Part shown: positions 10,490 through 60,789 of the stretch, in pieces
Numbering within the stretch: position 1 is the stretch's first letter
Layout of the letters: every line of letters begins with the position of its first letter
Assembly (NCBI GenBank): GCA_021537435.1
Contig: GCA_021537435.1_3050.1
Source of the DNA: a phage
Direction: 5' to 3' (one strand)
Length of the DNA stretch: 64,000 nt
The notes under the pieces: generated by a model
Databases searched by the model: none
Seen by the model: the letters and a program-made list of their open reading frames with translations, nothing else
Told to the model about the DNA's origin: nothing
Translations under genes and position numbers: made by a program

Positions 10490-10992
10490 TTAAAAATATT
10501 TTTTAAAACTCATCATAACTTTATCATCAACATCATTATCAATCTGTGCTACAAGGTAAGATGACAGTTCTACTTCTTGTGGCGCGGATTGAACATTATC
10601 AGAATTAAGATATTCACGAATCCAAGGATACGGATGTTTAACCGGAGCATCAGTAATTGGGCATGGAAGACCGCACTGTTTCATACGAGATACAGTTAAG
10701 TAATCAATAAAGCTCCACATGCTATTTGTATTTAATCCAGGAACATCGCCATCTTTAAATAAATGAACTGCCCAGTCTTTTTCTTGACGGTTAACTTCCA
10801 TGAAAATATCAACTGCTTCTTGTTCACACTCTTGAGCAATTTTAACCCATTCATCGCCATCAGTACCAGATTGAAGTTGACGAATAATATATTGGGTGCC
10901 TTTAAGGTGAAGCTGTTCATCGCGTGCAATGAACTTCATAATCTTGGCATTACCTTCCATGATTTCCATGTTTTTATGGAAGTTGAAAGTAC
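10490..10992 (-). CDS. nrdB: ribonucleotide reductase small subunit, exon 2
   Basis: Joined to exon 1 gives ...FYVSFA-C-TFNFHKNMEIMEGNAK..., colinear with E. coli NrdB; total 388 aa. Confidence 0.85.
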
Positions 10993-11128
10993 CGTTATGT
11001 TCGATTGAGCTCGCTAATTCTCAATCCGTTCTCTTATGAACTGCTACATATTACTATGCAGACCAGACTATATCACAATCCCAGAGGGATTCTCCCCATT
11101 TCGAGTCGCTTGACCCTACGTCCGAAGA

Positions 11129-11938
11129 CTAGTCGTTGAACCTTGCTTTGCAATTGTCGCCGTGCCATCGTTTATATGTTGATGGTGATAAATCTTTCTT
11201 ATCACAATATGGACAATTCAATTGAATTCTATTTGGATTTAATTTACATCTGTCATTATGTTTTAGATAAAATCCAGGACCTTTACCAATGTGACCACAG
11301 AAATCACATGTGATTTCTTTTTGTGCAGGATGGGTCCCGTTCTTAACCATTTCTAATGTTTTTGCTGATGTTCTTTTCTTATGGTCTTCTGATAAGAAAT
11401 GATGTGAACCGTCATTTACCCGTTTTGATTGAGTTTCTGACTGCATTTTACCACCGCAAAATACATGAGTACCTTCTTTTATAGCTGCAATATTACGTTC
11501 TTTAACTTTTGCAATATGCTCAGCTTGTTGAAAATTATGTATACCTAATGCAACTCTATTTAAATTAGATTTACGCTGTATTTCACCATCTAAAAGATGA
11601 AATGTACCATTTTCTATCTTAGATTTAATAGAGGCAATATTTTTAGCTCGTACTTCAGGGATATTAAAAATCTGGATTTCTCTAGATTTTGCGGCTTTAG
11701 AAGCTAATTCAGAAATTTCTTCAGGAGAATATTTCATTCTAAGCTTTATAGCATGACAAGCCTGGTAATCTTTTTGAGCTAAATGTATATCATAATGTTC
11801 CTGTATAGAAAGGCACATCAAATTATCTAAATCATTATTTTCACGGTTACCGTCTTTATGATGGATTTCGTATGTTCTTCCATCAGAATCTTTAGGTATA
11901 GGTCCGTTAGCATCTATCCAAATTTTTCTATAGTTCAA
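11129..11938 (-). CDS. I-TevIII: intron-encoded HNH homing endonuclease, full length (TTG start in ORF track)
   Basis: 269 aa inside nrdB intron; EIHHKDGNRENNDLDNL HNH motif and C-terminal CxxC pairs. Confidence 0.8.
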   Translation of the reverse strand: MNYRKIWIDANGPIPKDSDGRTYEIHHKDGNRENNDLDNLMCLSIQEHYDIHLAQKDYQACHAIKLRMKYSPEEISELASKAAKSREIQIFNIPEVRAKNIASIKSKIENGTFHLLDGEIQRKSNLNRVALGIHNFQQAEHIAKVKERNIAAIKEGTHVFCGGKMQSETQSKRVNDGSHHFLSEDHKKRTSAKTLEMVKNGTHPAQKEITCDFCGHIGKGPGFYLKHNDRCKLNPNRIQLNCPYCDKKDLSPSTYKRWHGDNCKARFND

Positions 11939-11965
11939 TTGTGCATCCTCTTAAAAGTATAATCA

Positions 11966-11973
11966 TATTTATA
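11966..11973 (-). promoter_or_regulatory. late promoter TATAAATA inside nrdB intron, upstream of I-TevIII
   Basis: Minus-strand TATAAATA about 28 nt before the ORF start; TTTGCTTGC MotA-box-like element just upstream. Confidence 0.55.
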
Positions 11974-12082
11974 TTATACTAATTAAAGGTGCAAGCAAAA
12001 CCTTGGCTGCTAGTTTTCCATAAAGGACTTTCCAGCAATTAAAGGAGTTTTCGATAAACGTTACCGTTTAAAGGCGCATTTT

Positions 12083-12746
12083 ACGCAAAAGATACATAAA
12101 AACGAATAGCTTCCAATGCGTTGATTACATGGAGGCAAAGGTAAAGAGATTTCATCAGATCTCGTTTAGCTCTTTGCTCAACGTCTTTATCAGCTAGAAT
12201 TAGACCTTGGTCTTTATAATATTCAACCATGTCTTTAGCATTTTCCCATTCACGGGTTTTAACCAAGACATCATCATAATAGCGACCGATAGATTCAGCA
12301 CGTTTCATGATAGCTTCATCTAATACAATCTCATCAAATACCTTTGATGGATCAGTATAAAGATTTCGCATGATATGAGTATATGAACGACTGTGAATAG
12401 TTTCACTAAAAGTCCATGTAGCAACCCATGTATCAAGGCTTGGGTCTGAAATTAATGACATAAGTACAGCAGATGGCGCACGACCCTGAATGCTATCCAA
12501 AAGTGATTGATACTTCAGGTTATTAGTAAAAATATTCTGCTGATACTGAGGAAGTTTATTAAATTGTGCAGCATCCATCATCAAGTTTACTTCTTCAGGA
12601 CGCCAGAAAAATGATAATTGCTTTTCAGTCAAATCTTCAAAAACTTTATGGCGTTGAATATCATAACGCGCAATACCAAGACCTGAACCGAAGAACATAG
12701 GTTCTTTTAAAACATCAACTGGATTTGTATTAAAAACTGTAGACAT
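12083..12746 (-). CDS. nrdB: ribonucleotide reductase small subunit, exon 1
   Basis: Colinear with E. coli NrdB (LKEPMFFG ... HSRSYTHI ... AIRFYVSFA); intron splits the following Cys codon after its first U. Confidence 0.85.
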
Positions 12747-12780
12747 ATTATTCTCGCTTATTATAGGTTTAAATATTTAA

Positions 12781-13572
12781 TCACATATTATGTATAAGCA
12801 CTTCGGTCTGAAATGATGCACCCTTCTTTTGCTTCCTATACATGGTTTCAAAATATTCAATTTTGAAATTATTAGAAAGGGCCCAATCTTTTAAAATATA
12901 ATTATTAATATCGTCTGATAGATTATTAGTGATAATAAATTTAGACTTCGATTGTTTAATTTTGTCTAATAATTCTAATTCATCCTTTTCTTCCCAGCCT
13001 GAATATTTAAATTTAGTAGAAAGATACGGCGGGTCAATGAATAAATTTTTGTTTTCAAAATCCAAATCTCTGAATGATTTATTACTAAATGTAAATCGGT
13101 GCTGTCTATTTTTAAATTCAGAAAATTTATCCTGCTGAGACTTATTAAAAGAAGTTCTGGAATACTTGGCTCTATTGGCGAAAGCCGCGTTATAATTCCC
13201 ATTACTAGAAAATCGGATTAACGAACTGAATGAAAATAAATGTAGAACATAAAGATATAATCCGTTTTTGGTTTTATCGTATTCTTTTGACAGATTATAA
13301 AAAGGTGCTGAATCTTTGTCATTCAAATTAAAATCTTCAATAATTTTAACTATATCATTAATTGAAGATGATTTCATCTTTTTATACATGTCTATAAGAG
13401 GAGTATTAATATCATTACATATAACATCTCTCTGACAATTCATAGAAAATCCAAGACCACCACAAAAAGCATCCAAAACAGGCTTATCGTCAAAGCGGTT
13501 TGAAAATTGTCTAATAAATGGCATATACTTATGTTTTGCACCTGGATATGTTATGGCAGGTAGGTCTTTCAT
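12781..13572 (-). CDS. Dam-family (D12 class) DNA N6-adenine methyltransferase, divergent
   Basis: 263 aa; motif I FCGGLG, motif IV DPPY, N-terminal YPGAK; by-eye alignment with recalled T4 and E. coli Dam. Confidence 0.8.
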   Translation of the reverse strand: MKDLPAITYPGAKHKYMPFIRQFSNRFDDKPVLDAFCGGLGFSMNCQRDVICNDINTPLIDMYKKMKSSSINDIVKIIEDFNLNDKDSAPFYNLSKEYDKTKNGLYLYVLHLFSFSSLIRFSSNGNYNAAFANRAKYSRTSFNKSQQDKFSEFKNRQHRFTFSNKSFRDLDFENKNLFIDPPYLSTKFKYSGWEEKDELELLDKIKQSKSKFIITNNLSDDINNYILKDWALSNNFKIEYFETMYRKQKKGASFQTEVLIHNM

Positions 13573-13615
13573 ATTATTTCTCGTTGTTGGTGACTCGTCC
13601 GTGAGTCAAATTATA

Positions 13616-15880
13616 TCATAATTTACAGGATGAACAATCTTCAGCTTTTGGAGTTTCTATTTCATAATCATCAGTACCAGAACCATCACGGGTATTATGA
13701 TAATAGAAATTTTTTCCGCCAAAATACCAAAAGTACAAAAGGTCATCAATCATTACAGACATTGGAACCTTTCCTTTTGGAAAAATCTGCGGGTCATAAT
13801 ATGTATTTGCTGAAGCTGATTGACATACCCATTTAAGCATAATAGCTACCTGCGTAAGATAAGGTTTATTACCTTTCTTAGCTAATTTCCATGTATAATC
13901 ATATAGGTCTATGTTATGTTCAATATTGGGCACGACTTGATTAAAGGAACCCTCTTTTGATTCTTTAACCGAGACTGGTCCACGTGGAGGCTCGATACCG
14001 TTTGTACTGTTAGAAACTTGGGAAGATGACTCACATGGCATAAGTGCTGATAATGTGCTATTACGGATGCCAAAGAGCTTAAGGTCTTCCCGCAGCGACG
14101 ACCAGTCACAAACGTATTTTGGAGCTGCGATTTGGTCAATCTTTTTATTGTACCAGTCGATAGGTAGTTCGCCTCGAGACCAACGAGTGTCTGAATAATA
14201 TTCGCAAGGTCCTTTTTCTTTGGCGAGCTTAATGGATGCTTTAATGAGTCCATACTGTAATCTCTCAAATAGTTCATGTGTTAAATCGTTAGCATCTTCA
14301 TAAGAAGCAAAGTTACTTGCCAGCCAAGCTGCATAGTTAGTAACACCTACACCAAGGTTACGACGCTTTTTAGCTTTTTCTGCTTCAGGAACTGGATATC
14401 CTTGGTAATCCAAAAGATTATCAAGAGCACGAACTTGAACTTCTGCCAATTCATTAATTTTATCTTGGTCTTGCCAATCGAAGTTATCCAACACAAATGC
14501 AGATAACGTACACAATCCAATTTCAGCATCAGGGCTATTCACATCATTTGTTGGAATAGCAATTTCACAGCATAAGTTACTCTGACGAATAGGTGCCTTT
14601 TCACGAATAAACGGAGTATAGTTATTCGTATTATCAATGAACTGTACATAAATCCTTGCTGTTCCTGAACGTTCAGTCATGAGCAATTCAAATAGTTCAC
14701 GGGCTTTAATACGCTTTTTACGAATATTAGGGTCTTTTTCTGCCGCTTCGTATAATTCACGGAAACGGTCTTGGTCTTTAAAATAAGAATAATAAAGCTC
14801 TCCACCCATTTCATGGGGACTGAACAAAGTAATGTAATCGTTCTTTCCAAAACGTTCCATCATCAAATCATTCAGTTGAACACCATAATCCATATGACGA
14901 ATGCGGTTTTCTTCTACGCCTTTGTTATTTTTCAAAACGAGAAGATTTTCAACTTCCAAATGCCAAATAGGATAATAAGCAGTAGCAGCGCCGCCACGAA
15001 TTCCACCCTGTGAACATGATTTAACTGCAGTCTGAAAATGTTTCCAAAAAGGAATAACACCGGTATGGCGTACTTCACCCATGCCAATCTTAGAACCTTC
15101 GGCACGAATCATACCAACGTTAATACCAATTCCAGCACGTTTGGAGATATATTCAACAATTGAAGCGGAAGCCTTATTGATAGACTTCAATGAATCTCCT
15201 GCCTCAATAACAACACATGAACTAAACTGTCGAGTCGGAGTACGGCAACCAGCCATAATAGGAGTTGGCAATGAAATCTGTCGAGTAGATACTGCTTCAT
15301 AAAAACGGATAACATGTTTTAATCTATCAACAGGTTCGTCTTGATGCAATGCCATTCCAATAGCCATAAATGCAAACTGTGGAGTTTCATAAATTTGACC
15401 AGTGGTTTTATCTTTAACTAAATATTTTTCTTTTAATTGCATCGCCCCGGAATAAGTAAATTCCATATCCCGCTCGTGCTTAATTTTTGATTCTAAAAAT
15501 GTAATTTCTTCTGCTGAATATTTTGACAACAATTCAGGGTCGTATTTACCTTCATTTACACAGTAAGAAATATGGTCAATAAATGAACGTGGTTCATACT
15601 GCCTGTAAACATGCTTACGAAGAGCGAACATTAAGCAGCGTGCAGCTACATATTGGTAATCAGGCTCTTCAACTGAAATAGAATTCGCAGCAGCCTTAAT
15701 GACAATAGTCTGAATATCATCAGTTGTCATTCCATCACGGAGATAAGATTTAATATTTTCATATAATTCATAAGGATCTACTGATGTTCCCTCAGCTGCC
15801 CAAGATAAAACTTTAATAATTTTTTGTGGGTCAAAGCTCTGAGAAACACCACTACTTTTGATAACATTAATTAATTGCAT
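13616..15880 (-). CDS. nrdA: ribonucleotide reductase large subunit
   Basis: 754 aa, class Ia RNR alpha subunit with ATP-cone N-terminus. Confidence 0.95.
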   Translation of the reverse strand: MQLINVIKSSGVSQSFDPQKIIKVLSWAAEGTSVDPYELYENIKSYLRDGMTTDDIQTIVIKAAANSISVEEPDYQYVAARCLMFALRKHVYRQYEPRSFIDHISYCVNEGKYDPELLSKYSAEEITFLESKIKHERDMEFTYSGAMQLKEKYLVKDKTTGQIYETPQFAFMAIGMALHQDEPVDRLKHVIRFYEAVSTRQISLPTPIMAGCRTPTRQFSSCVVIEAGDSLKSINKASASIVEYISKRAGIGINVGMIRAEGSKIGMGEVRHTGVIPFWKHFQTAVKSCSQGGIRGGAATAYYPIWHLEVENLLVLKNNKGVEENRIRHMDYGVQLNDLMMERFGKNDYITLFSPHEMGGELYYSYFKDQDRFRELYEAAEKDPNIRKKRIKARELFELLMTERSGTARIYVQFIDNTNNYTPFIREKAPIRQSNLCCEIAIPTNDVNSPDAEIGLCTLSAFVLDNFDWQDQDKINELAEVQVRALDNLLDYQGYPVPEAEKAKKRRNLGVGVTNYAAWLASNFASYEDANDLTHELFERLQYGLIKASIKLAKEKGPCEYYSDTRWSRGELPIDWYNKKIDQIAAPKYVCDWSSLREDLKLFGIRNSTLSALMPCESSSQVSNSTNGIEPPRGPVSVKESKEGSFNQVVPNIEHNIDLYDYTWKLAKKGNKPYLTQVAIMLKWVCQSASANTYYDPQIFPKGKVPMSVMIDDLLYFWYFGGKNFYYHNTRDGSGTDDYEIETPKAEDCSSCKL

Positions 15881-16749: not shown

Positions 16750-17765
16750 CATTATGTTCAGATAAGGTCGTTAATCTTACCCCGGAATTATATCCAGCTG
16801 CATGTCACCATGCAGATCAGACTATATCTCCAACTTGTTAAAGCAAGTTGTCTATCGTTTCGAGTCACTTGACCCTACTCCCCAAAGGGATAGTCGTTAG
16901 GCATTTATGTAGAACCAATTCCATTTATCAGATTTTACACGATAAGTAACTAATCCAGACGAAATTTTAAAATGTCTAGCTGCATCTGCTGCACAATCAA
17001 AAATAACCCCATCACATGAAATCTTTTTAATATTACTAGGCTTTTTACCTTTCATCTTTTCTGATATTTTAGATTTAGTTATGTCTGAATGCTTATGATT
17101 AAAGAATGAATTATTTTCACCTGAACGATTTCTGCATTTACTACAAGTATAAGCAGAAGTTTGTATGCGAACACCGCACTTACAAAACTTATGGGTTTCT
17201 GGATTCCAACGCCCGTTTTTACTTCCGGGTTTACTGTAAAGAGCTTTCCGACCATCAGGTCCAAGTTTAAGCATCTTAGCTTTAACAGTTTTAGAACGTT
17301 TCTTAATAATTTCTTCTTTTAATGGATGCGTAGAACATGTATCACCAAACGTTGCATCAGCAATATTGTATCCATTAATTTTAGAATTAAGCTCTTTAAT
17401 CCAAAAATTTTCTCGTTCAATAATCAAATCTTTCTCATATGGAATTTCTTCCAAAATAGAACATTCAAACACATTACCATGTTTGTTAAAAGACCTCTGA
17501 AGCTTTATAGAAGAATGGCATCCTTTTTCTAAATCTTTAAAATGCCTCTTCCATCTCTTTTCAAAATCTTTAGCACTTCCTACATATACTTTATTGTTTA
17601 AAGTATTTTTAATCTGATAAATTCCGCTTTTCATAAATACCTCTTTAAATATAGAAGTATTTATTAAAGGGCAGTCCTACAATTTAGCACGGGATTGTCT
17701 ACTAGAGAGGTTCCCCGTTTAGATAGATTACAAGTATAAGTCACCTTATACTCAGGCCTCAATTA
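16750..17765 (-). mobile_element. group I self-splicing intron in td (1016 nt)
   Basis: 5' end UAAUUGAGGCCUGAGUAUAAGGUG and 3' end ...CUGAACAUAAUG match the recalled T4 td intron. Confidence 0.9.
16897..17634 (-). CDS. I-TevI: intron-encoded GIY-YIG homing endonuclease
   Basis: 245 aa, MKSGIYQIKNTLNNKVYVGSAKDFEKRWKRH..., matches recalled T4 I-TevI. Confidence 0.9.
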   Translation of the reverse strand: MKSGIYQIKNTLNNKVYVGSAKDFEKRWKRHFKDLEKGCHSSIKLQRSFNKHGNVFECSILEEIPYEKDLIIERENFWIKELNSKINGYNIADATFGDTCSTHPLKEEIIKKRSKTVKAKMLKLGPDGRKALYSKPGSKNGRWNPETHKFCKCGVRIQTSAYTCSKCRNRSGENNSFFNHKHSDITKSKISEKMKGKKPSNIKKISCDGVIFDCAADAARHFKISSGLVTYRVKSDKWNWFYINA

Positions 17766-30093: not shown

Positions 30094-34213
<4,120 letters not shown>

Positions 34214-46022: not shown

Positions 46023-46055
46023 TTAATTATACCACATCCTTGTGGTAAAGTAAAC
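46023..46055 (-). promoter_or_regulatory. T4-type early promoter for rIIA.1/rIIA
   Basis: Minus strand GTTTACT, 17 nt, TGGTATAAT. Confidence 0.55.
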
Positions 46056-47875
46056 TATTGGCTCATCCATTCTTTACGAAGATCAGCATTATCTCCCATG
46101 AGCATTTCAAAAAGCTCTTTCCAGTTCTCAGGAAGTTTAACAACATCATATACTGGGTTTTGAATCATCTCACGATATTCAGATTTTTCCAAAGAGCCAA
46201 GTCCTTTAATATAACGGATGCTATGTTTAGGTAGAGCATCTTTGGCACTCTCATATTCAGCGACTGTATAAAACCATTCTTGTTTTTTACCGACCTGAGC
46301 GATGATTACAGGAGTTTTGACAAAGCGAATTCTTCCTTGCTCAAACAATTCTGGCCAATTACTAAAAAATCCGAGCAGAGAAGGATAAATGCTTCCTAGA
46401 CCATCATGGTCAGCATCAGTCATAATAGCGATATTATGATAATTCAAGTTTTCAGCTTTTTCACCGAGAACTAGACCAGTGATTGCGCAAATATCAAATA
46501 GTTCTTTGTTTTTAAGCATATCTGCATAAGACATACCCCAACTGTTGAGAACTTTACCACGTAATGGATAACCACCATGAAGTTCTTTATCACGAACATC
46601 AATAAGATATCCGATAGCAGAATCACCCTCAGTCAAGAAAAGAGTAGTGTCAGCATCTTTACCGCAAAGATTCGCTTTAATATGTTTATGAACCTTTGCC
46701 TTAGAGGCCTTTTTAGCTGCTTTAGTTTCAGCTGCTTTTTCTGCTGCCAATTTACGAGCCAAGGCAGCTTCAATAATTGGCATCAAAATAGCTTCATTAT
46801 TTAGAATAGCGCGTGAAATCTTTTTAGCATCAAGTTGAATATGACTACGAATTTCACCAAATGGAGAAGTCAAACGCTCTTTAGTTTGAGAGTCAAATCG
46901 CATGTTTTTCATATCGCGAACAAACATAACGATAGTCAAACATTCTTTAACACGTGCTTTAGTTACATCAATTTTGAATTTACGTTTGATTTGTGGAATA
47001 AGGTCTTCACAAATATCATCCATAACACAGTCAATGTGATGGCCACCATTCTTAGTATGAATGTTATTGACGTACGTCAACTGACGAAAACCATCCGGTG
47101 AACGACCAACCGCAATAGAACAATTTTCTTGTTCTTGAACAATAGCATGTTCATCATACTGTCGTGCATATTTCTTAAAATTGCCCTGAACCTTTTTACC
47201 ATTAAAGGTAAATTGAATATCAGGATAAACAACTGCGAGTGTCTGGAGACGATCCAGTGTAATGTCAAGATAAACTTGGGACAGCTCATTAGTTTCAAAT
47301 GACATAAAATCAGGAATGAAAGTAACACGAGTTCCTTTCCATTTTCCAGGAATATCTTCCCATGATTTATTTTCCATGCCATTTGAACAACGAACTACAA
47401 TATTATTTTGACCGTCGCCAGTTTCACCAACAAACATCACAGAAAAAATGTTTGTCAAACTAGAACCAACACCATTCATACCGCCAGTGACGCGTTCTTT
47501 ATCATCACCAAAGTTACCACCTGCTTTTGGAATAGTCCATGCAGCAACAGGACCAGGAATTTCTTCACCAGTAGGTGTTTTAACCATAGCCTGTGGAATA
47601 CCACGACCGTTATCTTCAACTGTTACCTGATTATTTTTAATAGTAACATTAATTTTATTTGCGAATTTAAACTTAGTACGAATACCTTCATCTACTGAGT
47701 TATCGATAATTTCATCAATAAGCTTAACAAGACCAGGTACATACTGAACACTTTCCCATTTACCAAACAGAAAGCGCTCATGCATTTCATTAGCAGAAGA
47801 GCCAATGTACATGCCGCTACGCTTTTTGATATGTTCAATATCGCTCAGAATTTTAATTTCATTCTTAATCATCAC
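46055..47875 (-). CDS. 39: topoisomerase II large subunit, unsplit (39 plus 60 equivalent)
   Basis: 606 aa continuous ORF with GyrB-like ATPase N-terminus and TOPRIM C-terminus (LTEGDSA, IMTDADHDG). Confidence 0.9.
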   Translation of the reverse strand: MMIKNEIKILSDIEHIKKRSGMYIGSSANEMHERFLFGKWESVQYVPGLVKLIDEIIDNSVDEGIRTKFKFANKINVTIKNNQVTVEDNGRGIPQAMVKTPTGEEIPGPVAAWTIPKAGGNFGDDKERVTGGMNGVGSSLTNIFSVMFVGETGDGQNNIVVRCSNGMENKSWEDIPGKWKGTRVTFIPDFMSFETNELSQVYLDITLDRLQTLAVVYPDIQFTFNGKKVQGNFKKYARQYDEHAIVQEQENCSIAVGRSPDGFRQLTYVNNIHTKNGGHHIDCVMDDICEDLIPQIKRKFKIDVTKARVKECLTIVMFVRDMKNMRFDSQTKERLTSPFGEIRSHIQLDAKKISRAILNNEAILMPIIEAALARKLAAEKAAETKAAKKASKAKVHKHIKANLCGKDADTTLFLTEGDSAIGYLIDVRDKELHGGYPLRGKVLNSWGMSYADMLKNKELFDICAITGLVLGEKAENLNYHNIAIMTDADHDGLGSIYPSLLGFFSNWPELFEQGRIRFVKTPVIIAQVGKKQEWFYTVAEYESAKDALPKHSIRYIKGLGSLEKSEYREMIQNPVYDVVKLPENWKELFEMLMGDNADLRKEWMSQ

Positions 47876-58973: not shown

Positions 58974-59492
58974 TCAATAACCTCGGTCTTGACGAGCGAA
59001 GTTTTCAGCATTTTTCAGATAATAAAGTTTAAAGATTTCTTCAGCCGTAAGACCGAGACCTTGGAACATGTTCAGAACGAAATGAAGAATATCAATCATT
59101 TCGAATTTAATTTCCAACTGGTCTTGTGGAGATAAGTCAGTAATCAGAGTTTCACGACGTTCACCGTGTTGCGACTTCCACGGCTTCCATACAGCAGATG
59201 CATCTTTTTCGCCATTGCTCATACCACCAAGAGAAGTCAGAAGTTCGCGGAATTCATCATCAATATAATCTTTCTGATTACGCAACCAATCAACAACTTC
59301 ACCTGCAGTAGCCAAATCATCAGGATGACGGTTATATTCAGGTTTATCTTTAGCTAAACGAACCTGCAGAGATTTCTGCATATCAAGCATAACCTGCAGC
59401 GGGTCTTTTTCATCACCGAGAATATCCCAGTATTCATTTTGAGCTTTATCAGCACCTTCGATCAGTTGACTACATTCGTTAAAGTATGCCAT
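58974..59492 (-). CDS. 56: dCTPase/dUTPase gp56 (MazG-like)
   Basis: 172 aa from MAYFNECSQ; ORF-track extension is hydrophobic and overlaps the promoter. Confidence 0.7.
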   Translation of the reverse strand: MAYFNECSQLIEGADKAQNEYWDILGDEKDPLQVMLDMQKSLQVRLAKDKPEYNRHPDDLATAGEVVDWLRNQKDYIDDEFRELLTSLGGMSNGEKDASAVWKPWKSQHGERRETLITDLSPQDQLEIKFEMIDILHFVLNMFQGLGLTAEEIFKLYYLKNAENFARQDRGY

Positions 59493-59521
59493 TATTTTTC
59501 CTTTCAATTCATGGGTTAGTA

Positions 59522-59551
59522 GATTAATTATACAATAAATATATAAAGCAA
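59522..59551 (-). promoter_or_regulatory. MotA-dependent middle promoter candidate for gene 56
   Basis: Minus strand: ATTGCTTTA, 13 nt, then TGTATAAT. Confidence 0.45.
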
Positions 59552-59563
59552 TAAGGAGGATAT

Positions 59564-59764
59564 ATGGTACAAAAATTAATGGCACTTGTTAATGCCATAA
59601 AAGGTAATAAAAAACGTATAGCTTTTACTATTTCTGCTATGGTAGGAATTTTACTCTGGAATTTTGTTTTATCACCAATTGCTATTGCTCATGGTGTTAA
59701 TATTCCAGTAATTACTCTTGATACATTCGTAGATTTAGCATTTGCTTTGGTTGGGTTAATTTAA
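59564..59764 (+). CDS. small two-helix membrane protein on the opposite strand
   Basis: 66 aa with AAGGAGG SD 4 nt before ATG; only plus-strand ORF in this early block not antisense to a gene body. Confidence 0.4.
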   Translation: MVQKLMALVNAIKGNKKRIAFTISAMVGILLWNFVLSPIAIAHGVNIPVITLDTFVDLAFALVGLI

Positions 59765-60789
59765 ATCTTAGCATATTTAGATAGCCGCATTTTAGCCATC
59801 AACCCTTGGGCAATATTATTTTTCATATATTCCATAATTTGTTCAGGGGTTGCACCTTCCTTTCTAATCATATCATTAACATCTTTTGATTTCCAGGGAG
59901 ATTTATCCCAAAACATAACCCTTTCTCCTGCATCAACTAATTTAGTCATTCGTTTAATAGTGTCAGGGTGACGAGGTTCATTATCTAAAACCCATACACG
60001 TCTATCTTTAAATGGAACAATTTCTAGGTCTAATTGACCACCCGTAATAGCTATACCATTTTCAATAAAAAGTGAATCTATAGGTCCTTCTAGAACATAT
60101 ACATCACCATCTTTGACTCGTTCAACTCCATAGATTTTTGTTGCCTCAGGATAAGCTTTGATGGTGATATATTTTTGAGGAGCATCTTTCTTTAATGCAC
60201 GTCCTTGAAAGGACTCGGCTTTTCCGTTAGCATTATAAATTGGAATAACAAGACGAGGCTCGGGCATTTCCTTTTTATATGTTCCTGGCGCTATACTATT
60301 AACTAATTTAGGCCATTCAGTTGTAAACCAAAGATATTTCCATTTATCCTTTGGAATACAACGAGCTTTTACATATTTTATAATTGGATGGTCTTCCGCC
60401 AGTTTATCTAATCTAATGCATGACGGAAGAGATTTAATTATTTTCTTCTCAGGTTGTTTAGGAAGTTCTTTAGGTTTTTCTACTGGACGACTTTTACCTT
60501 TTTCTTTTCTTATTTCAAAGATATATTCACGATATAAATCAGGTTCAAACTCCTTTAAATATATTCCGATTGGTGCATGATAGTTGCAGTTATAACAATG
60601 AATATTTCCTTCATTATTATCACCATAATACCATCCACGGGCTTTATTTTGGTCGGTTTTTGAATCTCCACAAACAGGGCATCTAAACCGTAATTTAAAA
60701 GTTGAACTATTATTTACTTGTACGAATTTAGGTAAATGAGCCAATGCACGGTATGCAAACTCATTATCAATCCAAGGTATTGATGACAT
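59761..60789 (-). CDS. 61: DNA primase gp61
   Basis: 342 aa, N-terminal zinc ribbon CPVCGDS ... CYNC and TOPRIM-like core. Confidence 0.9.
   Translation of the reverse strand: MSSIPWIDNEFAYRALAHLPKFVQVNNSSTFKLRFRCPVCGDSKTDQNKARGWYYGDNNEGNIHCYNCNYHAPIGIYLKEFEPDLYREYIFEIRKEKGKSRPVEKPKELPKQPEKKIIKSLPSCIRLDKLAEDHPIIKYVKARCIPKDKWKYLWFTTEWPKLVNSIAPGTYKKEMPEPRLVIPIYNANGKAESFQGRALKKDAPQKYITIKAYPEATKIYGVERVKDGDVYVLEGPIDSLFIENGIAITGGQLDLEIVPFKDRRVWVLDNEPRHPDTIKRMTKLVDAGERVMFWDKSPWKSKDVNDMIRKEGATPEQIMEYMKNNIAQGLMAKMRLSKYAKI

Follow-up and report, generated by a model that had tools for sequence, protein, structure and literature searches.

T-even phages serve as the reference for work on both DNA modification in phages and homing endonucleases. 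Their solitary adenine methylases, T4 and T2 Dam (M.EcoT4Dam; PDB 1q0s, 1yfj, 1yfl and 1yf3), are encoded between genes 56 and 61, and combine a D12/alpha-class fold with the motifs DPPY, FxGxG and an N-terminal Y-x-G-x-K. The GATC orphan and restriction–modification enzymes E. coli Dam (EcoDam) and DpnM (PDB 2g1p and 2dpm) belong to the same family. In EcoDam, residues Y119, L122 and R124 serve for intercalation, a third-base-pair contact and contact with the fourth-base-pair Gua, respectively (PMC4417163). The nrdA–nrdB interval, elsewhere in these genomes, is occupied by mobE in T4 and RB3 and is an empty 51-nt spacer in T2, phage G10400 also having an empty slot. In this slot mobE forms a promoter-less cassette relying on nrdA promoters (PMC2988022), MobE nicks nrdB at nt 122–126 (PMC2790892), and homing into this hotspot is documented, with co-conversion of up to 2 kb (PMC2790892, PMC2988022). 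Cassettes carrying hef have been reported from the same slot in other T-even phages (Sandegren et al. 2005, as cited in PMC2988022).

Here we analyze a 64-kb stretch of phage DNA (the window, meaning all 64,000 nucleotides), in which the nrdA–nrdB slot carries a DNA methyltransferase gene (hereafter, the MTase). A few publicly available phage genomes already annotate the gene as encoding a methylase, and the enzyme family is well known; our literature search turned up no published description of an nrdA–nrdB methylase. The account that we consider reasonably probable as a whole is that of an active solitary Dam of a separate lineage, carried by an nrdA–nrdB cassette with no recognizable promoter, which would methylate GATC-type sites, benefit the phage against nucleases and spread by recombination.

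A Dam-family methyltransferase between nrdA and nrdB

The MTase ORF (12781..13572, minus strand; 263 aa), delineated from the ORF list and the Pfam PF02086 match, begins with ATG. Its upstream neighbor is nrdA (13616..15880, minus strand; 754 aa), and on its other side lies nrdB (10490..12746, minus strand), split by a group I intron into exon 1 (12081..12746) and exon 2 (10490..10969). The intron encodes a full-length I-TevIII of 269 aa (11129..11938), and the same nrdB architecture is found in the L013 contig. The D12/Dam motif order described in the initial annotation can be read directly from the translation, with YPGAK at residues 9–13, FCGGLG at 36–41 and DPPY at 180–183; this corresponds to the alpha-class arrangement of an N-terminal motif X, motif I, the recognition domain and motif IV. 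PF02086, the D12 class N6-adenine MTase family, matches over profile positions 1–251 of 253 (E = 5.5e-24; 85.7 bits versus a gathering cut-off of 22), and phrog_56 'DNA methyltransferase' is a further match (E = 9e-36). All Pfam and PHROG matches were to DNA methyltransferase families, and none was to a nuclease domain. The protein scores below the curated cut-offs of both TIGR00571 'dam' (94.1 versus 114.85 bits), a point of difference from T4/T2 Dam, and NF008152, the E. coli Dam equivalog (33.5 versus 441 bits).

T4 Dam (PDB 1yfj/1q0s) is the best PDB sequence match (E = 4e-38, 134.7 bits). Residues 4–252 of the MTase align with residues 2–251 of T4 Dam at 35% identity (69/200 by BLASTP; 35% over 243 aa by tblastn), which agrees with the initial view of a near end-to-end alignment at moderate identity, distinct from a near-identical T4/T2 Dam. 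The DPPY/FxGxG register that this view presupposed is present, with both motifs aligning with those of T4 Dam. An AF2 model (pLDDT 87, pTM 0.86) predicts the Dam fold, comprising a Rossmann-type catalytic domain and a helical recognition domain with a beta-hairpin. In Foldseek searches, the model retrieved T4Dam first (TM 0.83, colinear nearly throughout), followed by EcoDam (0.75) and DpnM (0.73). EcoDam and DpnM, despite sharing family and fold (TM 0.72–0.75), are only ~16–18% identical to the MTase in structural alignment, and Thr8 (by manual mapping) occupies the position of EcoDam K9, so that no Lys is found there.

Residues Y9, G11, K13, F36, G38, G39, N53, D54 and D180-P-P-Y183 are the same as in T4 Dam, and these catalytic and cofactor columns are kept in 93–100% of 147 family representatives, with the exception of G39 (75%, 110/147). 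The motif columns are also invariant across four MTase alleles and, position 39 apart, present in 139–147 of the 147 representatives. Across four allele lineages separated by dS of 0.3–1.3, dN/dS is 0.07–0.17, indicating strong purifying selection on the product, and dN is threefold higher in the half holding the recognition domain. The locus is therefore a real gene for a D12/Dam-family N6-adenine DNA methyltransferase that looks functional; judging from its sequence, the protein probably catalyzes N6-adenine methylation.

The gene had also been noted as more AT-rich than its nrd neighbors, and its GC content is indeed 0.290 against 0.375 for nrdA, 0.357 for nrdB exon 1 and 0.354 for the window, placing it in the lowest 0.7% of 792-nt windows. 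Its GC3, at 0.250, equals that of the neighbors (0.25–0.27). The low GC is thus a matter of amino-acid content and not of foreign codon usage, and AT-richness is rejected as a sign of recent foreign origin. Such an origin is further disfavored by the closest relatives of the MTase anywhere, which are T-even Dam representatives.

Anatomy of the cassette

Comparison with the empty slots of G10400 and T2 places the left junction with the ancestral nrdA–nrdB spacer between positions 13586 and 13585: the window is identical to both up to ...GAGTCACCAAC and then diverges. The cassette opens with a specific 13-nt leader, AACGAGAAATAAT (13573..13585, minus strand), providing the ribosome-binding region of the MTase, and closes with a 34-nt spacer of its own, TTAAATATTTAAACCTATAATAAGCGAGAATAAT (12747..12780, minus strand), which forms a new ribosome-binding region for nrdB. 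The right junction lies at or just within the nrdB start, which reads ATG-TCT in all carriers versus ATG-AGC in empty-slot phages; the ATG-TCT start also adjoins mobE in RB3. In total, the cassette spans ~840 bp (12747..13585) and takes the place of the final ~21 nt of the 51 nt that make up the ancestral spacer. Retained upstream of it is a hairpin, TGACTC-ACGGAC-GAGTCA (13591..13608, minus strand), preceded by TATAAT at 13610–13615. This element is ancestral rather than part of the insertion, being found in the empty slot of G10400 and in every carrier, and its version in the Klebsiella phage (AGGCTC...GAGCCT) shows a compensatory pair change. It has no U-tract and received no terminator call.

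A promoter scan returned nothing convincing before the MTase ORF, the only strong promoter-like match lying within the ORF. Within its 3' end, the cassette contains a TGCTTA box and a TATAAT, with a spacing that by eye does not fit a middle or sigma-70 promoter for nrdB, and the scan was likewise unconvincing there. Since no convincing promoter precedes the ORF, the MTase transcript is probably supplied from nrdA. Co-transcription of the cassette with nrdA, early or in mid infection, would be the most likely arrangement because the cassette brings ribosome-binding regions for itself and for nrdB and no recognizable promoter.

All 15 public contigs encoding this exact protein, like every annotated phage record, have the MTase flanked by nrdA and nrdB; the two genes adjoin it in every context examined, with no cognate restriction endonuclease beside it. 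This is the interval that holds mobE in T4 and RB3, consistent with the initial assignment of the gene to a homing-endonuclease slot. The T4 map positions given there are also correct, the T4T record reading nrdA-mobE-nrdB, and dam lying between 61 and 56 in PD112 and BGP. The resemblance to mobE extends to a single-gene cassette without a recognizable promoter that abuts the nrdB start and is patchily distributed in T-even phages. However, mobE begins at the nrdA stop codon, whereas the MTase cassette keeps the part of the spacer with the TATAAT and hairpin; and unlike mobE and hef, its cargo is not an HNH or GIY-YIG nuclease but a methyltransferase, so the cassette lacks a self-mobilizing activity. 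With the MTase, the occupants of this classical homing hotspot come to include a gene that is not a nuclease.

Relationship to canonical dam

Between gene 56 (58974..59492) and gene 61 (59761..60789), the window has an interval of 268 bp (59493..59760) that, in comparison with PD112, lacks dam and contains only one small plus-strand ORF. The region is shorter than that of PD112 by ~900 nt, dam included. A tblastn search of the 64-kb window with T4 Dam and the 263-aa protein as queries found no second Dam-like sequence, in keeping with the initial description of an interval of ~270 bp with no methyltransferase. Because the usual dam locus is empty, the MTase would be the sole source of Dam-type methylation in this phage.

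Canonical T-even Dams are 46–100% identical among themselves, and those of other T4-like genera retain 46–60% identity to T4 Dam. The MTase is 29–37% identical to all of them and about equally distant from each; at 35% to T4/T2 Dam, it falls outside this group of orthologs. In a crude neighbor-joining tree, the MTase clade forms a deep, long, separate branch with no resolved sister, T4 Dam being marginally the closest characterized relative (distance 0.67); given the crude tree and the long branch, we claim no specific sister group. The MTase thus appears to be a solitary Dam-family enzyme without a partner nuclease, probably active and belonging to a small, isolated lineage apart from classical T2/T4 dam.

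Canonical Dam (≥90% identity) is present in 182 records, compared with ~506–537 Tequatrovirus-like records, so that ~65% are without it and most have an empty 56–61 interval. In phage pSs-1, which matches the 56–61 region of the window best, canonical dam is missing from this interval and, over the stretch examined, the slot has no annotated gene. NR1, T4_ev240, 236Ecol005PP, ECO07P2, EP02SG, CF-SP2 and fDHCT2 each have only one Dam-like locus in the whole genome, as does H164, and BGP carries the slot MTase together with canonical dam. Mutual exclusion between the two genes was considered and is not significant at ~65% background absence, with BGP having both. Dam-type methylation in T-even phages therefore comes in at least two versions of separate descent at two loci, each present or absent independently, with most Tequatrovirus records having neither.

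Phyletic distribution and spread

The MTase occurs in 9 of 50,697 phage records (~1% of Tequatroviruses) and is hence not the standard dam of close relatives; had it been, the initial annotation would have been undercut. Among 1.84 billion representatives, the MTase family falls into one isolated 50% cluster. Carriers from Tequatrovirus, Gelderlandvirus and Marfavirus, as well as the unclassified fDHCT2, all have the gene in this slot, which is thus occupied by it in three T-even lineages or more. The backbone of BGP is that of a Tequatrovirus (nrdA with 96% nucleotide identity to the window), yet its MTase allele is 95% identical to that of Gelderlandvirus CF-SP2 and 79% to that of the window, making it one clear cross-lineage transfer of the cassette. 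An identical allele adjoins three different nrdB configurations. The window and BGP have the full-length I-TevIII intron, and NR1, ECO07P2, CF-SP2, fDHCT2 and the Klebsiella contigs have an intron-less nrdB with no mobE beside the cassette. The divergence of the MTase is similar to that of its flanks in CF-SP2, fDHCT2 and the Klebsiella phage, a pattern that ancient residence with repeated loss fits as well as horizontal spread. The cassette is one alternative occupant of a known recombination hotspot, the others being mobE or nothing in the records examined and hef in the literature. It would have passed from one T-even lineage to another by homologous recombination within the conserved nrd flanks.

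Recognition region and predicted target

By alignment, EcoDam Y119, L122 and R124 map to F115, L118 and R120 of the MTase, all conserved, and R134 aligns with T4 Dam R130. The MTase shares the recognition-hairpin F, S and R and the Arg at the R130 position with T4/T2 Dam, and the Leu and Arg at L122 and R124 and a post-hairpin loop of similar length containing a K/R-Y pair with EcoDam and DpnM. In one allele group, Lys replaces the key Arg120. In contrast to T4/T2 Dam, Ala replaces Gly128, and the position of T4 Pro126 (EcoDam P134), which makes a third-base-pair contact, is Ala or Ser throughout the clade: Ala130 in the window and Klebsiella alleles, and Ser in the BGP/CF-SP2/fDHCT2 and P0002 alleles. 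As a diagnostic of altered specificity this substitution is weakened by its frequency in the 147 nearest representatives (P 52%, S 20%, A 11%; S and A together 31%) and by Ser in P0021, the representative nearest to T4 Dam (53.7% identical).

A further difference is a loop 6 residues longer than in T4 Dam, with an invariant, clade-specific insertion K136-Y137-S138-R139 after the R130-equivalent, beside the first-base-pair contact. The KYSR residues are missing from 141–144 of the 147 nearest representatives in a 153-sequence alignment; the model is least confident over residues 131–140 (pLDDT 64). HMMER pairwise alignments suggest that the loop after the hairpin in EcoDam and DpnM is similar in length to that of the MTase, and a novelty in loop length is therefore partly rejected, the KYSR residues themselves still being clade-specific.

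Most likely, the MTase would flip and methylate the adenine of GATC or GATC-like sites as phage DNA replicates, through hairpin contacts shared with T4 and E. coli Dam. GATC is our best guess for the target, based on homology at 35% identity, with a relaxed or extended specificity as a less probable alternative. For a GATC enzyme, the idea that methylation blocks the MobE nick of nrdB is rejected, since no GATC lies near nt 122–126 of the window nrdB, whose sites are at 394 and 586.

Alternative explanations

An inactive or repurposed protein, such as a DNA- or SAM-binding factor without catalysis, might be read from the score under the TIGR00571 cut-off, but this is extremely unlikely given that no catalytic or SAM-binding motif is disrupted or varies among alleles, that the predicted full-length fold agrees with T4 Dam and that dN/dS is 0.06–0.09 in the catalytic half. 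We also judge it very unlikely that a resident dam moved from the 56–61 interval into the nrdA–nrdB slot, or that a loss of dam was made good by gaining the slot gene; the initial annotation had suggested relocation or replacement. Such events would account for the empty dam locus of the window, for the seven carriers (BGP and PhiKpNIH-6 excepted) in which the slot MTase is the only Dam-like gene and for T4 Dam as the marginally closest characterized relative by score (134.7 bits) and distance (0.67). Yet 35% identity lies beneath the 46–60% of orthologs in other T4-like genera, the branch is deep and separate, and with ~65% of Tequatrovirus-like records lacking canonical dam anyway, its absence from 5 of 6 Tequatrovirus carriers is roughly what chance predicts. 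Relocation is rejected on these identities (29–37% to canonical Dams that share 46–100% mutually), on the isolation of the family as one 50% cluster and on a dS among the MTase alleles that is already ~1; replacement is unsupported, as an empty 56–61 interval is common, pSs-1 lacks canonical dam there and BGP has both genes.

Another reading holds that the cassette is a selfish hitch-hiker of little benefit to the phage, kept by the gene-conversion range of I-TevIII and MobE cuts in nrdB and by co-inheritance in mixed infections. The homing hotspot, a distance of ~0.2–1 kb to the reported MobE 5' nick site in nrdB, the full-length I-TevIII introns of the window and BGP, and a patchy distribution with one cross-lineage transfer are all compatible with it. 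It nonetheless appears unlikely, as the cassette has no nuclease domain of its own, five carriers or contig sets combine an intron-less nrdB with no mobE, the strong purifying selection implies that the product matters, and a frequency of ~1% is unlike that of efficient homing elements. Somewhat more credible, though still doubtful, is a 'hypermethylating' Dam acting on GATC plus non-canonical sites, or on GATC with a flanking-base requirement. The classical T4 hypermethylating mutation dam-h, reportedly described by Miner, Schlagman and Hattman in 1989, is said to be Pro126->Ser, the very position that is Ala or Ser in the MTase clade; the invariant KYSR next to the first-base-pair contact, the threefold higher dN in the recognition half and the retention of both genes in BGP, which suggests that they are non-redundant, point the same way. 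Against this stand the common Ser and Ala at the Pro126 column (including P0021), the conservation of the intercalating aromatic, L118, R120 and R134, and a loop length nearer to the strict GATC enzymes EcoDam and DpnM than to T4 Dam. Were it true, the enzyme would give protection from more kinds of nuclease than classical Dam does, and the two would not be redundant. A combination of both ideas, in which a natural Dam of relaxed or extended specificity spreads among T-even genera on I-TevIII/MobE gene-conversion tracts at nrdB as beneficial anti-defense cargo without a nuclease of its own, seems quite unlikely.

Functional implications

For the favored reading of an active, GATC-type solitary Dam, the likeliest benefit would be that host nucleases sensing the methylation state of adenines spare the phage DNA; a role in restriction evasion is plausible in view of T2/T4 Dam biology. 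Given its rarity, and given that most relatives do without any Dam, the gene would benefit the phage only under certain conditions. The general picture is unchanged, as the enzyme family, the plasticity of the slot and dam polymorphism are all known. Dam activity may also carry a cost: retron Ec86 is activated by a phage-encoded methyltransferase, as discussed in PMC12871103, and an m6-dAMP sensor that is still triggered to some extent in dam- cells may be responding to T2's own methylase (PMC12871103, preprint). Phage Dam activity can thus both shield against restriction and, according to recent work, be a liability, so which methylase a phage carries and what it marks matter for predicting host range and for selecting therapeutic phages.

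A divergent Dam-family methyltransferase between nrdA and nrdB

The gene at 12781..13572 (minus strand; ATG start, 263 aa) encodes an orphan DNA adenine methyltransferase from a rare second lineage of the Dam family; it is carried between nrdA and nrdB as a single-gene cassette without a recognisable promoter. Its translation contains YPGAK at residues 9-13, FCGGLG at 36-41 and DPPY at 180-183, and it matches PHROG 56 ("DNA methyltransferase") as well as a near-complete Pfam PF02086 profile (D12-class N6-adenine DNA methyltransferase; E = 5.5e-24). Its top sequence matches among solved structures are the T4 Dam entries 1yfj, 1yf3 and 1q0s (E ~4e-38), with residues 4-252 aligning with T4 Dam 2-251 at 35% identity; DpnM and E. 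coli Dam are far weaker matches. The AlphaFold2 model (pLDDT 87, pTM 0.86) likewise superposes best on T4 Dam (TM 0.83), followed by E. coli Dam (0.75) and DpnM (0.73). These results bear out the initial annotation, which had proposed a Dam-family enzyme from the three motifs and an end-to-end alignment with T4 Dam at moderate identity.

Matches to this gene occur in 7 of 50,697 phage records at the DNA level and in 9 of 50,697 at a protein identity of at least 60%. Five Tequatroviruses (NR1, T4_ev240, 236Ecol005PP, ECO07P2 and EP02SG) encode a 98-100% identical protein, and ~76-80% identical versions are found in Tequatrovirus BGP, Gelderlandvirus CF-SP2, the unclassified fDHCT2 and the Klebsiella Marfavirus PhiKpNIH-6. 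The nrdA-nrdB location is constant in every matching phage record, and also in 15 of 15 public contigs with the exact protein and in the Klebsiella-type contigs. Among 5.8 billion proteins, a word-indexed search returned only four 90% clusters, and when 1.84 billion 50% representatives were scanned exhaustively with HMMER the whole family fell into one cluster; the next match outside it, P0021 (116 bits, 34% identity), is itself 53.7% identical to T4 Dam. Because of this single cluster and the nature of its next match, the family is a lineage both small and isolated, and the canonical T-even Dams are its closest relatives outside the cluster; a rough neighbor-joining tree nonetheless places it on a deep separate branch. 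The gene is already annotated in a few records, yet uncharacterised: several GenBank records label it "DNA adenine methylase" or "putative methylase", and the literature searched yielded no paper describing a methylase between nrdA and nrdB.

Relationship to the vacant 56-61 interval

As the initial annotation had described for the T4 map, mobE lies between nrdA and nrdB in the T4 comparison genome, and canonical dam, where present, lies between genes 61 and 56. Its observation that the latter interval lacks a methyltransferase in the window also held: genes 56 (58974..59492) and 61 (59761..60789) are separated by 268 bp, ~900 nt including dam are missing relative to phage PD112, and no second Dam-like sequence was found in the 64-kb window. 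This arrangement had suggested that the resident dam was either relocated or replaced. Relocation is rejected, since the cassette protein shares 29-37% identity with each of the canonical T-even Dams, whereas these are 46-100% identical to one another across genera. For replacement or compensation, the slot gene is indeed the sole Dam in seven carriers; however, BGP encodes both it and a canonical dam, and the pattern is not significant because canonical dam is absent from ~65% of the background. Canonical Dam at an identity of at least 90% occurs in 182 records, compared with ~506-537 Tequatrovirus-like records, so the empty 56-61 interval is the majority state, and pSs-1, the best match to this part of the window (98.2%), also lacks dam there. 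Replacement is therefore unsupported.

A small plus-strand ORF in the 56-61 interval (~59563-59763) encodes a hydrophobic product of ~66 aa (MVQKLMALVNAIKGNKKRIAFTISAMVGILLW...). It has a strong AAGGAGG ribosome-binding site, lies antisense to the genes around it, and is annotated as well in pSs-1 (gp45), PD112 and BGP, irrespective of the presence of dam.

Slot anatomy and transcription

On one side of the cassette is nrdA (13616..15880) and on the other nrdB, which is split by an intron encoding a full-length I-TevIII of 269 aa. The slot exists in three states—an empty 51-nt spacer (G10400, T2), mobE (RB3, T4) and the methylase. Junction alignment revealed that ~30 nt at the start of the ancestral spacer, comprising TATAAT, a TGACTC-ACGGAC-GAGTCA hairpin and CCAAC, are kept 5' of the methylase. 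In place of the last ~21 nt of that spacer stand a 13-nt leader, the 792-nt ORF and a 34-nt spacer, the last of which supplies nrdB with a new ribosome-binding region. The nrdB start reads ATG-TCT in all carriers of all lineages, as in RB3, and ATG-AGC in empty-slot phages. We found no terminator at the cassette and no convincing promoter 5' of the ORF. The gene would be co-transcribed with nrdA by analogy with mobE, described as a promoter-less cassette fed from nrdA promoters (PMC2988022).

The TATAAT element and hairpin (13591-13615, minus strand) directly follow the nrdA stop in empty-slot phages and all methylase carriers; the Klebsiella phage version, AGGCTC-ATGGAA-GAGCCT, carries a compensatory pair change. 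Folding energies range from -7.5 to -10 kcal/mol, and the missing U-tract rules out an intrinsic terminator; within the nrd operon the hairpin may serve as a processing element or mark the 5' end of a transcript. The I-TevIII of the nrdB intron (11129-11938, minus strand) is of the RB3 type, unlike the truncated form in T4, and a td intron with a 245-aa I-TevI (16897-17634, minus strand) is also present; NR1, with an identical methylase, lacks both introns.

Spread of the cassette

The methylase of CF-SP2, fDHCT2 and the Klebsiella phage is about as diverged from the window copy as nrdA and nrdB are (74-83% nucleotide identity), which fits an old presence in each lineage with extensive later loss. 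BGP differs: its methylase is a cross-lineage transfer into the same slot, because its nrdA is that of a Tequatrovirus backbone (96% nucleotide identity to the window) and its allele is 95% identical to that of Gelderlandvirus CF-SP2 and only 79% to the window's. Three different nrdB configurations adjoin the identical window-type allele, and the cassette occurs in only 2 of ~49 records with CF-SP2-like flanks (at least 90% nucleotide identity). Together with the BGP allele, these patterns point to transfer and local recombination. At this documented recombination hotspot, nrdB is nicked by MobE at nt 122-126 and co-conversion driven by endonucleases extends up to 2 kb (PMC2790892), so the cassette could mechanistically have hitch-hiked on I-TevIII or MobE events. 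Such hitch-hiking need not be invoked, since the intron and mobE are both absent from most carriers.

Within nrdB, exon 1 (12081-12746) is ~89-92% identical to most Tequatroviruses, compared with 96-98.6% for the adjacent nrdA. The region is generally polymorphic (558 of 713 records at 80-90%), which fits its role as MobE target and co-conversion zone. In T4 (mobE+, dam+; locus L022 of the comparison genome), a GATC at nrdB nt 129, corresponding to the window 12618 region, adjoins the position (nt 122-126) at which MobE nicking was mapped in T2; it is missing from T2, from the window and from every other phage compared.

Selection, composition and target specificity

The four allele lineages differ by 20-28% at the protein level, with synonymous divergence of 0.3-1.3 and dN/dS of 0.07-0.17. 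Purifying selection acts most strongly on the catalytic C-terminal half (omega ~0.07) and less so on the N-terminal half with the recognition domain (omega 0.16-0.26). All catalytic and cofactor-binding positions are invariant, and we infer a probably active enzyme. Nucleotides 540-720 of the gene (12853-13032) are 87-95% identical between allele lineages that otherwise share 63-85%, identity reaches 100% over the final 12 nt of the ORF, and only a few bases differ in the 34-nt spacer that follows; this conservation suggests a gene-conversion tract or nucleotide-level constraint, such as an embedded nrdB-expression signal.

The gene is AT-rich, as first judged by eye, with a GC content of 0.290 (lowest 0.7% of 792-nt windows). 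Its GC3 of 0.250 equals that of neighbouring genes, so the low GC reflects an Asn/Lys/Phe/Ser/Ile-rich protein rather than foreign codon usage. Among 4-bp palindromes in the window, GATC shows the strongest depletion (67 observed versus 207 expected; ratio 0.32); the ratio is 0.38 for CTAG and 0.53 for TCGA. The methylase gene itself contains no GATC.

In E. coli Dam the dominant determinant is R124, which reads the fourth-base-pair Gua; Y119 is the intercalating residue, the third base pair is contacted by L122 and P134, and the first by K9 and Y138, the last contact not being family-conserved (PMC4417163). Alignment mapping identified F115, L118, R120 and R134 (the T4 R130 position) as conserved contact equivalents, with R120 replaced by Lys in the BGP/CF-SP2/fDHCT2 allele. 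The methylase alleles share an invariant K136-Y137-S138-R139 insertion after R134, which 141-144 of the 147 nearest family representatives lack. At the Pro position, the window and Klebsiella alleles have Ala130 and the remaining two have Ser. This is suggestive of altered specificity because the T4 dam-h hypermethylating mutant of Miner et al. 1989 is reportedly Pro126->Ser; however, 31% of the nearest representatives have Ser or Ala in this column, which makes the substitution weak evidence. Altered specificity, as initially proposed, is a reasonable possibility. Judged from sequence, a GATC core is the somewhat favoured target, and a relaxed or extended specificity is a tentative, rather unlikely reading.

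Elsewhere in the window, ORFs of 1101 aa and then 263 aa at 30094-34213 (plus strand) are, from their sizes only, presumably tail-fibre tip genes of the T2/T6 type (long gp37 and ~260-aa gp38 adhesin) rather than T4. Gene 39 (46055..47875, 606 aa) appears to be unsplit, judging against T4 and T2 gene sizes.
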